Sequence record: LC739533.1
Reading direction: 5' to 3' (one strand)
DNA from: Escherichia phage phiWec179
DNA length: 64,000 nucleotides
Positions within the stretch are counted from its first letter, which is position 1. The number at the start of each line of letters is the position of its first letter. A program made the translations under genes and the position numbers. Under the pieces are notes generated by a model. It saw only the letters and a program-made list of their open reading frames with translations, searched no databases and was not told the DNA's origin. Below, piece by piece: positions 2,552 through 9,710 of the stretch.

Positions 2552-2824
2552 TTACAGCAAAAAGTTTACTTGTCTTGCTGTTAATGTAGTATCAACCATT
2601 TTCGGGCTTTTATAATTGACAAAACGCGCGGTTTTTTCAATAGCGAAGCCGAGATAATCTTGTTTGTTGAAATTACATTCTTTCTTAAATGTTTCCCGTG
2701 CAATGGCGATCGCTGCGTCCAGGGATAAACGCCCGTCAATATTGATATTTGCGAAAGATCCGCCACCGCTCATAGGTTTACCAGTGGTGCCCGTTACGAT
2801 CATTGTTGCGCTATATGATGCCAT
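2552..2824 (-). CDS. Hypothetical protein (90 aa)
   Basis: Start taken at the internal Met (MASYSATMIV...) downstream of the copy 5 hairpin; the track start at 2860 lies inside the hairpin. Confidence 0.55.
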   Translation of the reverse strand: MASYSATMIVTGTTGKPMSGGGSFANINIDGRLSLDAAIAIARETFKKECNFNKQDYLGFAIEKTARFVNYKSPKMVDTTLTARQVNFLL

Positions 2825-2846
2825 GATGATAATCTCTCTTAGTTGT

Positions 2847-2908
2847 GAGCGGTGGACCATTCCGCCGCTCTACGTGATACATCTTATCAGGTTGTTGCCT
2901 GTTGTCAA
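2847..2908 (-). promoter_or_regulatory. Early promoter (TTGACA-N16-TAAGAT) with conserved 5' leader hairpin, copy 5
   Basis: Minus strand: -35 (2903-2908), -10 (2881-2886), then GTATCACGTAGAGCGGCGG and hairpin 2847-2870. Confidence 0.6.
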
Positions 2909-2914
2909 TACTTT

Positions 2915-3112
2915 TTATTCAAGCCCTACGATATGTAAGACACGGCGATTAGCAATAGCGTGCTGGTCTTCTGTTATAACGCCCATTTCTACCAGTGAAT
3001 CAAGAAAGGAAAGCACCGTGATATATTCGTCATCGGGTACACTCATTTCATTAGTACCGTTTACCACTACGTTGATTTGTCCTGCTTTCGCTACAATGTG
3101 CAATGTTGCCAT
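2915..3112 (-). CDS. Hypothetical protein (65 aa)
   Basis: Intact ORF with GGAG RBS; first gene of the leftward small-gene cluster. Confidence 0.5.
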   Translation of the reverse strand: MATLHIVAKAGQINVVVNGTNEMSVPDDEYITVLSFLDSLVEMGVITEDQHAIANRRVLHIVGLE

Positions 3113-3309
3113 GATCTTAACTCCAGGTGATGAATGATGTTTTTTGTTGGTTGACGGTGGATTATGGAGATCCTCACCTTTGCCCGTCCTGCATTGCGCC
3201 CTCCTGTTGTTTATTGTCGTTGTGCCTCGCCCCCCTCGACAAGATTAATACTACGCTACCAGGTGCGGAACGTCAACGACTTTTTCAATCTTTTTTATTT
3301 TCTTTTTGC

Positions 3310-3338
3310 TTGCTATATATAAAGGAAAGGGCTATCAT
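3310..3338 (+). promoter_or_regulatory. Putative sigma70-like promoter (TTGCTA-N17-TATCAT)
   Basis: Hexamers at 3310-3315 and 3333-3338, upstream of the rightward ORF at 3387. Confidence 0.35.
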
Positions 3339-3386
3339 CTTTCTACCGCGCCAACCAGGGCGCACAACAGAAGAAAGGGCGACACC

Positions 3387-3653
3387 ATGACAACTACTAC
3401 ATTACACCTTATGCACTCGTTAGGCTGGCAAGGCGGCACGGTCCACCAGGTAGCAAGCGCAACGGGCTTAAAGGTTGAAACAGTTCTCAACCTGGGCGAT
3501 CATAAAGTGGAAGAGATAGACCATTTTGATCCGTTCGCTGATGGTTATCTCTGGGCTTGCAGTGGCGGCGGGGAAAGCAAGATACCGCCAGCCGCGCGGG
3601 GCGATATGCATTTTTGGTTAGGTGTTCTCTCCTGGCAAGAAAACAAAAAATAA
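3387..3653 (+). CDS. Hypothetical protein (88 aa)
   Basis: ORF MTTTTLHLMHSLGWQGG...; divergent from the leftward cluster. Confidence 0.45.
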   Translation: MTTTTLHLMHSLGWQGGTVHQVASATGLKVETVLNLGDHKVEEIDHFDPFADGYLWACSGGGESKIPPAARGDMHFWLGVLSWQENKK

Positions 3654-3655
3654 TC

Positions 3656-3684
3656 TTGACAAGCCCAGGGATCGGGCTTATACT
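3656..3684 (+). promoter_or_regulatory. Consensus sigma70 promoter (TTGACA-N17-TATACT) firing into a non-coding region
   Basis: Perfect -35 at 3656-3661, 17-nt spacer, -10 TATACT at 3679-3684. No credible ORF with an RBS lies downstream before about 4470. Confidence 0.6.
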
Positions 3685-3908
3685 GTTTTACATACAGAAG
3701 AGGAAGCGCCACCCCACGGCGTAAAGGCGGGGCTAACATACCAGGGGCACTGGTTGGAAGGTCGATCGCCGGGAGGCTGGGCGCTATATATTTGTAAAGA
3801 AATGTAAAGATAAAATAATCGCTTGCTTTCCTGGCTGGATCTGTTATTCTTATTACATGGCGAGGGGACACGGGAGCGCGAGACAATCACCGGACCTGCC
3901 CGTCATTC

Positions 3909-4020
3909 TGCAAATGAGAAAAATTCTCATTTGCAAATAAGACTCATTCGCATTTAATAATTGAATGAGAATCATTCTCATTCTCATTCGTATTTCGATT
4001 TTAAGTGAGAATAATTCTCA
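3909..4020. repeat. Three palindromic operator-like sites with core TGAGAA-N1-3-TTCTCA
   Basis: Palindromes at 3909-3935 (12-bp arms), 3963-3983 (10-bp arms) and 4006-4020 (7-bp arms). Confidence 0.7.
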
Positions 4021-4034
4021 TTTCGGTAATTTTC

Positions 4035-4219
4035 ACGTAAACTTTAGAATTTGCTTTTCAACTTTCACTTTTGTAAAAGCAAAAAAACTTTAAATACCTG
4101 GTGCGCGCGACTTTTTAAAAAATTTTTCTCGGTTTTTTGCTTTGAAATCTGGCCCACCAATTTGAGATAGTGTACGTAAACTTTAGAATTTGGTTTTGGA
4201 TTCTCACTTTTGTAAACTC
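4035..4219. repeat. Imperfect ~46-bp direct repeat pair plus TTGAGATA triplet
   Basis: ACGTAAACTTTAGAATTT identical at 4035-4052 and 4174-4191, with similar extensions ending ACTTTTGTAAA. TTGAGATA occurs at 4162, 4248 and 4271. AT-rich context. Confidence 0.7.
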
Positions 4220-4375
4220 GTAAAAAGTTTAAATAATTGTAGGGATTTTGAGATAGTTTGCTTGTAAGGTTTGAGATAATCCTTCCCGAAGATGTTACGC
4301 AGCCTACAGCCTACCTGAATGCTCGTCTAACGAGATTAACTCTAAAAGATGAGTGTTGGTGTAGCTAAAGAGAAA

Positions 4376-4402
4376 AGGCTCTCTACGGTGTTGTAGGAGC
4401 CT
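4376..4402. terminator. Intrinsic terminator hairpin, probably bidirectional
   Basis: Stem AGGCUC/GAGCCU with extended CUAC/GUAG pairing; T-rich tail on the minus strand (UUUUCUCUUU) after the leftward operon, weaker T-tract on plus. Confidence 0.55.
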
Positions 4403-4473
4403 TATTTCTGTGGCACAAAGTTGACGTATTCTTTTTAAAAACGAATTTTTTCAAAATATCACGAATATCGCCT

Positions 4474-5001
4474 TTATGGTATTTTGGCTGGGAACAGGAT
4501 TTTAATCAGATTGTTGTGGTATTGTCCTAAAAGATTCTGCCCTTTCCAGTTGGCAGGATTAAGCACCCCTGGTTCGTACATACCCATTCCAATTCCGTAA
4601 ACCTTATCATAAGGACTCGCCTCAACGAACGTTTTGAATTGGTACAGTCGCAAGTCAGAATAAAGATCAGGGTTCTGTGTATACTTCAAGCATAAGCCTC
4701 GCATTACGATACGCTCTCGGTACTCTTCCCACATGTCATTATTAAAACCAGACACCGCTCGACCCATGCGCTTGTAGTATGCCTGTCCCTTCTCGTCGTC
4801 ACGCTTCATTGAGTGATCAAGGATAGCTGCTGCGATTACCTGATCCTTGAACAGCAAAGCCTTACGCCACATCATGTATTGCTCTACACAACAGAAAGTT
4901 TCATTGTACCCTGGTTCCGTCTCTGTGAATGGTGCAATGTACCAATTGCTAAACACATCTTTATGTGAAAAGAAGAATACATATTCATTAGTTATTCGCA
5001 T
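4474..5001 (-). CDS. NADAR (YbiA-like, DUF1768) domain protein; candidate ADP-ribosyl-guanine hydrolase
   Basis: Recalled YbiA/NADAR family motifs: FFFSHKDVFSNWY, CCVEQYMMWRKALLF, RMGR, YTQNPDL...FVEASPYD..YGIGMG...NLLGQ. Confidence 0.8.
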   Translation of the reverse strand: MRITNEYVFFFSHKDVFSNWYIAPFTETEPGYNETFCCVEQYMMWRKALLFKDQVIAAAILDHSMKRDDEKGQAYYKRMGRAVSGFNNDMWEEYRERIVMRGLCLKYTQNPDLYSDLRLYQFKTFVEASPYDKVYGIGMGMYEPGVLNPANWKGQNLLGQYHNNLIKILFPAKIP

Positions 5002-5176
5002 TTTTCATGCCTCTTAAGACTTCAGCTTGCCCGTCTTGAAAAGCTTTCATCAGAACTATCTTAAGATTGACTTCCAAGCGTTCTTCATCCTCTTTATAAC
5101 AATCCAACACTGCCTTAAGTTCATCATAGTGGTTCAGAATAGGTTTAAAGATTTCATGATCTGCTAAACGTGCCAT
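4988..5176 (-). CDS. Hypothetical protein (62 aa)
   Basis: Start at MARLADHEIF with AAGGAG RBS; the track's upstream Met at 5212 has no RBS. Confidence 0.5.
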   Translation of the reverse strand: MARLADHEIFKPILNHYDELKAVLDCYKEDEERLEVNLKIVLMKAFQDGQAEVLRGMKNANN

Positions 5177-5189
5177 AGTTTCTCCTTTG

Positions 5190-5555
5190 TTAGTCCATCC
5201 ACCAGTAGCCATAAACTGCGTCTGCGTCGATGAGTTTGTGTTTGTTGTTCCGCATGTAGTCTAAGATAAGTAGACGTTTATTGTATCTGGAGAGATTATG
5301 ACCCTCTTTTCCGCCATAGTCAAAATATTTTGCAAGACTTTTACACTCAAACAAAATCAGTTCGGGAGTTTCTTCACATTGGTCTGTCTGGTACACTTGA
5401 CGGATGATCATGTATACGTCATCGTCTTCCGCTAAGTGCTCTACTGGTCCACACCCAGCAGGAATAAATTCATAGTCCCATCGAATCAGATGTTTCTCTA
5501 CTGCTTCAAAGAAATCCATTTTTTCGCTACGCATGATCTGAACATCAATTAACAT
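5190..5555 (-). CDS. Hypothetical protein (121 aa)
   Basis: ORF with AGGAGG RBS; overlaps the stop of the upstream gene. Confidence 0.55.
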   Translation of the reverse strand: MLIDVQIMRSEKMDFFEAVEKHLIRWDYEFIPAGCGPVEHLAEDDDVYMIIRQVYQTDQCEETPELILFECKSLAKYFDYGGKEGHNLSRYNKRLLILDYMRNNKHKLIDADAVYGYWWMD

Positions 5556-9377: not shown

Positions 9378-9710
9378 TTAGCTCCACAAGTTATGAAAAT
9401 ATTCAGCAAACAGGCAACGACCTTCGATTTTATCCGTTTTGGTCATAACGGATTCAGGTTTAAAACCTTCAATCATTTGATCAATAATGGATAACCACTC
9501 CACTGTAGCTTCCCGCTCCTGCTCTTCTGTTAGTTTACGGTAATCTGACACATATTTAGCCCAAATCTTAGATGGGATAAGGATATCCCCTCGTTCCACA
9601 ATACGTGCCTTGAACGCGTACAGTCCAGCACAGATAATCGCGGAGAACGTATCATCCAGGTCTTGCAGATCTTCTACGCCAAATTGTAATTCATCATGGA
9701 TAATTTTCAT
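9378..9710 (-). CDS. Hypothetical protein (110 aa)
   Basis: Intact ORF; 4-nt overlap with the upstream gene. Confidence 0.6.
   Translation of the reverse strand: MKIIHDELQFGVEDLQDLDDTFSAIICAGLYAFKARIVERGDILIPSKIWAKYVSDYRKLTEEQEREATVEWLSIIDQMIEGFKPESVMTKTDKIEGRCLFAEYFHNLWS

Follow-up and report, generated by a model that had tools for sequence, protein, structure and literature searches.

Conservation and layout of a non-coding phage locus

The window analyzed here is a stretch of 64,000 nucleotides of Escherichia phage phiWec179 (LC739533.1), a Phapecoctavirus with 100% identity over the query to Escherichia phage phiWec181 and ~83% identity to phAPEC8. Our subject is the non-coding locus at positions 3654 to 4473, which is flanked on both sides by blocks of minus-strand genes, the left one made up of small early genes with host-type promoters. 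An earlier sequence-only reading had noted here a perfect promoter (3656-3684) firing rightward into a region with no credible open reading frame (ORF), a GC-rich segment at about 3700 to 3790, three palindromes, two direct repeats of ~46 bp, three copies of a short motif, and a terminator hairpin (4376-4402), and all of these were recovered and are non-random (Table 1). The promoter, P1, begins three bases past the stop codon of an 88-aa ORF, and the GC content is 0.60 at 3700-3799. The palindromes at 3909-3935, 3963-3983, and 4006-4020 are accompanied by a fourth, degenerate copy at 3935-3955. The direct repeats (DR1 and DR2) extend to 62 nt with 84% identity, the motif TTTGAGATA(G/A)T occurs nowhere else in the window, and the terminator hairpin is stable on both strands. 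No gap free of ORFs of at least 60 aa in the 64 kb is longer than 3891-4473, and the most AT-rich 200 to 300 bp lie at 3903-4250. Between 3700 and 3850, the transcribed strand has a positive GC skew. A scan for tRNA and transfer-messenger RNA genes found none.

The locus was matched by megablast in 145 phage records, 67 of them over ≥80% of the query. Its left third (~3687-3980) was matched by blastn in 403 records at 70 to 88% identity, across different genera and subfamilies; the genera were Justusliebigvirus, Vequintavirus (rV5), Certrevirus (CR8), Seunavirus (SSE121), and Mydovirus (KNP2). Every record examined had the match inside the same ~900-bp unannotated gap flanked by minus-strand genes. 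The locus is a syntenic module conserved across the Stephanstirmvirinae and Vequintavirinae. Its position in the record varies between deposits, consistent with arbitrary starts.

The order of elements was taken from an alignment of the relatives' loci plus IMG/VR contigs. The left part has the constant order P1, a structured element named RNA1, a GTAAA-N5-GTAAA box, a second promoter (P2), the hairpin of a second structured element (RNA2), and one to four palindromes. The right part continues with an extended −10 promoter (in several genera), two or three long AT-rich direct repeats, TTTGAGATA-type motifs, and AAATATCA repeats at the border of the convergent gene; a terminator follows the TTTGAGATA motifs in the module. 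Conservation is maximal at promoter hexamers, palindromes, and repeats and shows no codon pattern. Comparison with related phages, which had been proposed as a check, turned up no conserved protein-coding gene spanning the region.

Table 1. Features at the phiWec179 locus (positions in the window)
Feature	Position	Strand	Remarks
88-aa gene	3387-3653	+	Sole plus-strand gene nearby; begins the rightward unit; directly upstream of P1
P1, TTGACA-N17-TATACT	3656-3684	+	11/12; top match in 2800-5200
GC-rich hairpin in P1 spacer, then T-rich run	3661-3679	+	Terminator scan match; −8.8 kcal/mol, z only −1.3
RNA1, 82-nt GC-rich conserved element	3694-3775	+	5' Shine-Dalgarno-like ACAGAAGAGGAA
GTAAA-N5-GTAAA direct repeat	3794-3808	+	Unique in 64 kb; just upstream of P2; matches CpxR-box consensus
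P2, TTGCTT-N16-TATTCT	3823-3850	+	7/12, weak; not called by consensus scan
RNA2, ~50-nt 5' hairpin	3857-3907	+	Outer stem AUGGCG../..CGUCAU; conserved loop GAGACAAUCACC
Fur-type box 1, AATGAGAAAAATTCTCATT	3913-3931		18/19 to AATGAKAATNATTMTCATT; inside 27-bp perfect palindrome 3909-3935
Fur-type box 2, degenerate, AATAAGACTCATTCGCATT	3936-3954		16/19 to AATGAKAATNATTMTCATT; fourth palindrome copy
Fur-type box 3, AATGAGAATCATTCTCATT	3964-3988		3964-3982 core plus one more ATTCTC hexamer
Fur-type box 4, AGTGAGAATAATTCTCATT	4004-4022		18/19; overlaps −35 position of the −10-like TAGAAT of DR1
AT-rich direct repeat DR1	4035-4096	+	−10-like TAGAAT at 4045-4050; motif AAACTTTAAATA
Inverted repeat AAAGCAAAAAA/TTTTTTGCTTT	4076-4143		11-nt arms, 100% complementary; flanks GCGCGC island and palindrome TTTTTAAAAAATTTTT
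Two overlapping promoter-like sites, TTGAAA-N18-(TG)-GATAGT and TTGAGA-N16-TAGAAT	4142-4189	+	9/12 (with TG) and 10/12; consensus scan
Three TTTGAGATA(G/A)T motifs	4161, 4247, 4270 (4161-4280)	+	All copies in 64 kb
AT-rich direct repeat DR2	4174-4235	+	Conserved in relatives
Intrinsic terminator hairpin	4376-4402		−20.7 kcal/mol on plus strand (z −4.4); −17.2 kcal/mol on minus strand (z −5.0)
AAATATCA-type repeats, AAAATATCACGAATATCG	4454-4473		Adjoin stop codon of convergent NADAR gene

The palindromes as putative Fur boxes

The operator-like palindromes are, judged by their sequence, Fur-family boxes. They have the 19-bp dyad form AATGA(G/T)AAT-N-ATT(C/A)TCATT, the four sites score 16 to 19/19 to AATGAKAATNATTMTCATT, and every match of ≥15/19 to a Fur-type 19-mer in the 64 kb falls within 3913-4022. 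Box 3 (3964-3982) agrees at 19/19 positions with AATGAgAATcATTctCATT, the Fur consensus published for Xanthomonas campestris (PMC1790865). On the other strand, 3967-3985 reads GAGAAT-GAGAAT-G-ATTCTC, the classical three-hexamer layout with G for T. In E. coli, AATGAGAATCATTATT is part of the primary Fur site at the aerobactin promoter, and the string also appears in papers on virulence genes of uropathogenic E. coli. Box 2 resembles the feoAB1 operator that was cocrystallized with Fur (..GCAACTCATTCGCAA.., PMC4506495). In Enterococcus faecalis, iron-transport operons have a Fur box of the sequence TGAGAATGATTCTCA (PMC6056675), to which the dyad here is identical, and the same strings have been reported as Fur boxes in Listeria, in Acinetobacter, and in siderophore clusters.

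The crystal study of Fur bound to DNA found that only a G, some T residues, and the narrow groove of AT-rich DNA are read, with Arg57, Tyr56, and Lys15 as the contact residues (PMC4506495). Boxes 1, 3, and 4 keep the TGA...TCA and ATT/AAT positions invariant and, judged by inspection, have an AT-rich center. T-type and G-type half-sites swap between phages, even within one box (e.g., TGAGAAT-G-ATTATCA). The locus shares with known Fur boxes the 9-1-9 dyad, the G/T contact positions, the AT-rich center, and, at one site, the three-hexamer layout; it differs from ordinary ones in being a phased array in a virulent phage that follows a promoter and has no gene after it. Each genus keeps one to four boxes, spaced exactly 29 bp apart in most genera, with a single box in, for example, SSE121 and the locus L013; box 1 stands at a fixed distance past RNA2 in all genera. 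A regulatory hub bound by a dimeric repressor was one of three explanations offered by the sequence-only reading, and it comes closest: the boxes match a Fur consensus at up to 19/19, and their number, phasing, and position are conserved across genera.

The same boxes in phage T5

With blastn, 3905-3997 was weakly matched to T5-like phages, and in T5 itself the counterpart is the non-coding Repeat Region 3. There, at 9473-9630 of the T5 genome (AY587007, locus L035), the copies of "direct repeat C" and the palindromes E to I present the same Fur-type boxes (e.g., AATGAGAATCATTATCATT), and the same 19-mers stand at 1462-1597 of phage bobsandoy (L023). Scores in T5-like phages reach 19/19, and the T5 repeats and palindromes would themselves be near-consensus Fur boxes. 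Being part of the terminal repeat, the T5 array occurs in two copies per genome. The array is near DnaA boxes, brackets the shear point of first-step transfer calculated by Davison (9618), and comes just before the 7.9% nick (9661-9668); Davison's analysis describes the repeats as conserved and of unknown function and does not mention Fur. Our literature search found no paper linking Fur with the T5 injection-stop signal, with T5, or with lytic phages.

The phiWec179 locus resembles T5 Repeat Region 3 in having four to five of the same palindromes in conserved non-coding DNA, followed by other families of direct repeats, and the likeness extends to the flanks (CTTAAATGAGAATCATTATCATTTGCATTTCAC in T5 and CTTAAATGCGAATCATTATCATTTGCATTTCCAC in phAPEC8). 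The two differ in what accompanies the boxes. T5 pairs them with DnaA boxes (inverted repeats IRD'/IRC'), a nick site, and the boundary of the terminal repeat, whereas phiWec179 pairs them with two promoter-leader units.

Promoters and a CpxR-type box

Promoter-like sites are more numerous in 2800-5200 (11) than in shuffles (4.4 ± 1.9). The hexamers and spacing of P1 are kept in all genera and its spacer sequence varies. The hairpin within that spacer is terminator-like for the upstream 88-aa gene and nested inside the next promoter, and other genera likewise have GC-rich dyads in this spacer. P2 reads TTGCAA-N17-TATATT in other genera, again with conserved hexamers and spacing and a variable spacer. 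At the region equivalent to 4142-4189, Seunavirus, Mydovirus, and L013 have a clear extended −10 promoter (TTGACA..TGTGAGAAAAT and similar).

The GTAAA-N5-GTAAA box upstream of P2 is kept, with variable N5, in all RNA2-bearing genera but Vequintavirus, and another early promoter in KNP2 also has GTAAA-N5-GTAAA upstream. As in the CpxR box of Cpx-activated promoters, the two direct repeats fit the consensus exactly and are one helical turn apart, and they are centered ~46 to 56 bp upstream of the P2 start, ahead of the −35. The candidate is unlike a CpxR box in that it sits in a phage and is missing from the rV5 version. It is a putative CpxR site that could equally be an UP-like element or the site of a phage protein.

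RNA1 and RNA2 as candidate early leaders

RNA1 has a consensus fold consisting of the hairpin CGCC[ACCCCAC]GGCG and a helix GGCGG/UCGCC that closes a variable hairpin, ACCAG..CUGGU. Fifty-eight alignment columns are invariant among 21 distinct sequences. Profile search gave 25 RNA1 loci, a metagenome scan added 14, and GTDB representative genomes added 1; RNA2 follows RNA1 in all 14 of the metagenome loci. When the GTDB representative genomes were scanned with the RNA1 core, the only true match was a phage contig in a metagenome-assembled genome, next to four chance matches in GC-rich coding DNA; RNA1 is therefore no widespread bacterial riboswitch-like element. It lacks a start codon, and its length variation is limited to one loop, with indels that are not multiples of 3. 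In the alignment, 97.7% of cells at paired positions are paired, 15 of the 19 pairs are invariant, and 1 covaries (AU:13/GC:8); the metagenomic variants added two uncompensated disruptions.

RNA2 forms a unit with P2 and the first palindrome that was found at ~30 loci by nhmmer profile search. Its G·U pairs fit the plus strand only. Covariation was not demonstrated for RNA2 because variants of the 5' and 3' stem strands assort independently. In the 3' strand (window 3888-3900 and homologues), the triplet after CACCGG toggles among GGG, ACC, GCC, CCC, and AGG independently in several genera; with GGG, the DNA sequence becomes CACC-NNN-GGTG. This triplet (GGG/ACC/CCC) showed no covariation with the RNA2 5' strand or the RNA1 loop, and all combinations occur. 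L013 carries an insertion of ~45 nt within RNA2.

Rfam covariance models gave no match in 3000-5000 at E ≤ 1 and, in 3686-3940 at E ≤ 10, only a chance match to mir-246 (17 bits versus a threshold of 60). RNA1, RNA2, and the palindrome array had no blastn match in 5,426 complete E. coli genomes, so they are not captured host sequence.

The phAPEC8 record (L002) annotates "putative promoters determined with PHIRE" that are in fact a conserved leader hairpin (ACAUAGGGCGGCAAUGGUGCCGCUCA) and not promoters. These 20-mers are at 92-111, 524-543, 1378-1397, 2394-2413, 3283-3302, and 3922-3941 of phAPEC8, with a counterpart at ~753 (minus strand) of the window. The hairpin begins ~7 nt past the sigma-70 −10 boxes of early genes and is a common 5' RNA element of early transcripts. 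Because these elements are leader hairpins placed 7 nt past a −10, RNA1 and RNA2 look like early leader units without ORFs. Like the phAPEC8-type leaders, they start 7 nt after a sigma-70 −10 and combine ACAUA/G.. with a GC-rich hairpin, and RNA1 has the ACAGAAGAGG ribosome-binding-site context of those genes, its 5' end repeating the context of real genes at 1074 and 7749 (ACAGAAGAG). Unlike those leaders, RNA1 and RNA2 have no start codon or ORF behind them, and RNA1, at 82 nt, is far more conserved across subfamilies than the surrounding coding genes.

RNA1 and RNA2 are separated or duplicated independently in some relatives. A promoter, an RNA2-like hairpin, and a Fur-type box recur as one unit, in tandem in rV5 and dispersed in KNP2. 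In rV5 (L007), two tandem copies occupy the place where RNA1 and RNA2 would stand, the one in place of RNA1 being at 1417-1476. A second copy in KNP2 (L034, NC_048647; 2880-3420, minus strand) lies 7 kb away and has promoter hexamers identical to those of P2 in the window. The IMG/VR contig L020 (6420-7013, minus strand) has a 197-aa ORF (MKKVYGVGVND...) inserted exactly between RNA1 and RNA2; it had no Pfam match and may be a mobile insertion of the homing-endonuclease kind. The sequence-only reading had also considered a single ~700-nt non-coding RNA from one promoter, which is too simple for a locus with at least two conserved promoter-leader units and promoter-like elements within its repeats.

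A possible iron-gated early transcription unit

The reading that we prefer, and advance tentatively as somewhat short of probable, sees in the locus a conserved early transcription unit, non-coding and without genes, that host Fur gates. Early in infection, host sigma-70 RNA polymerase would start at P1 and P2 and make short structured leader RNAs, in the style of the early mRNA leaders of the phage, with no ORF behind them. Iron-loaded dimers of host Fur would occupy the phased boxes from ~55 nt past the P2 start to the −35 of the next promoter-like element, and in doing so would block rightward transcription toward the AT-rich repeats or repress it. With Fur iron free, or titrated by replicating phage DNA, transcription would read through to the terminator at 4376-4402. 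The locus would in this way couple the non-coding early transcript, or a role of the AT-rich repeats, to host iron status, and the GTAAA-N5-GTAAA box may add an envelope-stress (CpxR) input at P2.

Several observations weigh against Fur gating. No box overlaps the promoter of an iron-regulated gene, and no iron-related gene, nor any gene, follows downstream, unlike at ordinary Fur operators. P2 itself is not overlapped by the boxes: they come downstream of it, beginning ~55 nt past its start, and box 4 alone overlaps a weak promoter-like element; to our knowledge, roadblock repression by Fur is not an established mode. P2 of the window scores only 7/12 to consensus, and the promoter-like elements past the boxes are weak or not positionally conserved. 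The classical E. coli 19-mer GATAATGATAATCATTATC is matched at best at 15/19 (3967) and next at 14/19 (3961), where shuffles give ~2.8 hits of ≥14 per 64 kb. This weaker match is due to the G-for-T half-sites: most half-sites have G where the 7-1-7 motifs of Fur, PerR, and Zur all have T. Support for RNA structure is thin, with one covarying pair in RNA1 and independent stem variants in RNA2.

A broader proposal, which we regard as doubtful, is that in at least three virulent enterobacterial phage lineages (phAPEC8-like, rV5-like, and T5-like) phased arrays of Fur sites in conserved non-coding DNA act as an iron-status switch or a Fur sink, gating the undescribed RNA1 and RNA2 here and forming part of the injection-stop signal in T5. 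The parts of the locus are of known kinds, namely, sigma-70 promoters, Fur boxes, a CpxR-type box, and a terminator. As far as the literature was searched, their assembly into a deeply conserved gene-free hub in virulent phages, the putative Fur identity of the palindromes and of the direct repeat C copies in T5, and the two RNA elements are undescribed.

If Fur binds, several families would contain strictly lytic phages that are wired into host iron sensing through DNA sites and not through genes, and plain DNA sites of such wiring never become visible in genome annotation. This would give a handle on how phage development responds to iron limitation, the usual condition of the gut and of infection, with a bearing on therapy with rV5-like and phAPEC8-like phages. 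It would also give a handle on the role of the conserved T5 injection-stop repeats and on two abundant, unclassified, highly conserved phage RNA elements. Even without Fur binding, no other non-coding module of the phage group is as well conserved as this locus. The Vequintavirinae are reported as the largest cluster among virulent phages persisting in E. coli isolates, and the Phapecoctavirus/Justusliebigvirus cluster is also present (bioRxiv 10.1101/2024.12.31.630880); a putative environment-sensing non-coding hub may be related to such persistence.

Alternative explanations

Several of the alternatives to Fur gating are not mutually exclusive. The strongest, also named by the sequence-only reading and in our judgment unlikely, is a transcription-activated replication origin. 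Tandem promoters would fire into an AT-rich unwinding region, the long repeats or the palindromes would be iterons of a phage initiator, and the G-rich RNA1 and RNA2 could form an R-loop primer. Transcription-activated origins include the T7 primary origin, T4 oriF and oriG, and lambda ori. The locus is like the T7 primary origin and lambda ori in its tandem promoters directed into the most AT-rich DNA of the area, its four dyads with near-regular spacing, and its extra direct repeats. An origin is conceivable because the locus is AT rich and repeat rich and lies in the path of promoters: two or more rightward promoters, and probably at least four, point into the most AT-rich segment and the largest ORF-free gap of the 64 kb, two or three long direct repeats accompany the phased palindrome array in every genus, and the positive GC skew is on the transcribed strand. 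Against this, DnaA and IHF consensus sites are absent from the window and from 12 orthologous loci, save one chance-level match, and the DnaA box TTWTNCACA was not found in 3300-4500 or in the orthologous loci. The neighboring NADAR, CapR-domain, and AAA proteins are no recognizable initiators, and the 88-aa protein has no match to a helix-turn-helix or other DNA-binding fold. The dyads match the consensus of a host repressor and not a phage-specific iteron, and, unlike at the T7 and lambda origins, no initiator gene adjoins, host replication-factor sites are lacking, and the unit ends after 700 bp at a strong terminator. The authors of the rV5 genome saw skew changes only where the direction of transcription switches, none of them at the equivalent site, and the T5 origins were mapped elsewhere than the analogous T5 region. 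What stands of the origin proposal is the AT richness, the repeats, and the inward promoters; DnaA and IHF boxes, an initiator gene, and a skew change in rV5 are missing.

The array might instead be a Fur sponge with no role in cis, which we think quite improbable: amplified phage DNA would titrate Fur and derepress host iron uptake, supplying phage processes that depend on iron. Multicopy Fur boxes are well known to titrate Fur, as in the Fur titration assay, the high-scoring boxes are clustered with no regulated gene downstream, and the same layout recurs, twice per genome, in non-coding DNA of the otherwise unrelated T5-like phages. The fixed place of box 1 after RNA2 and the recurring promoter-hairpin-box module argue for a role in cis, and genera with one box only (SSE121 and L013) would have a poor sponge.

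It is similarly hard to credit that the palindromes are operators of a phage-encoded dimeric protein that resemble Fur boxes and serve an early-to-middle switch independent of host iron. In favor, the G-for-T change is systematic in most half-sites, the gene just upstream in the same orientation encodes an uncharacterized, conserved small protein, and many nearby early genes are of unknown function. The free interchange of T and G half-sites, however, fits the tolerant readout of Fur, the boxes are common to T5-like phages that are otherwise unrelated, and the 88-aa protein, with no DNA-binding fold match, is unannotated in the box-bearing phages CR8 and SSE121.

A cis-acting site for DNA entry or packaging, at which bound host proteins would pause transfer or mark the terminus as at T5 Repeat Region 3, is very improbable. 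The T5 region carries the same Fur-type boxes, has the shear point and the 7.9% nick in or adjoining the array, and, as in phiWec179, has other direct-repeat families after the boxes. Its DnaA boxes have no counterpart at the phiWec179 locus, however, our literature search found no transcriptome, terminus mapping, two-step injection, or defined termini for this phage group, and the differing position of the locus between deposits is consistent with arbitrary starts.

A missed protein-coding gene, be it the minus-strand ORF gp009 or small ORFs in the AT-rich part, can be dismissed almost outright: the phAPEC8 annotation places a 113-aa minus-strand ORF (gp009) across P1, RNA1, and P2, and PHANOTATE calls several tiny ORFs, one with a PHROG number, in FENT2, but the counterpart of gp009 in the window (3545-3886) has no Pfam or PHROG match, is disrupted in frame by indels of 1 to 6 nt in relatives, and overlaps a real plus-strand gene and two conserved promoters, and conservation peaks at hexamers, palindromes, and repeats and not in a codon pattern.

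AT-rich repeats, terminator, and neighboring genes

The core of DR1 is strongly conserved in phAPEC8 and P3322, and every genus has two or three analogous long repeats. The palindrome AAAAATTTTTT also occurs in the repeats of the Vequintavirinae, which consist of three ~95-bp units of the form AAAAATTTTTT ... ATACG-[hairpin of varying sequence]-CGATCGAGAAC (orthologous loci L004, L005, L006, L007, L016, L017, L028, L029, and L032). The hairpins of these units differ in sequence and keep their pairing. The units are GATC rich, and the repeats of the window have no GATC.

Copies of TTTGAGATA are found at the same relative place in KNP2 and FENT2. The TTTGAGATA(G/A)T motif may be an extended −10-like element or a protein-binding site; TTTGAGATAAT as an extended −10 fits some copies, and the final T is not conserved in KNP2.

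The terminator at 4376-4402 is probably bidirectional, also ending the convergent NADAR gene, because the hairpin is stable on both strands and has the better T-run on the minus strand. It is annotated as a minus-strand terminator in phAPEC8 and is nearly invariant in relatives. Two to four copies of CAAATATCA stand at the same border in all genera.

To the right of the locus, the convergent NADAR-domain gene (4477-5001, minus strand) is followed by genes for CapR-domain and AAA proteins. The NADAR assignment has a Pfam E value of 1e−33, and the label "GTP cyclohydrolase II" that several relatives' GenBank records give to this gene looks like a misannotation.

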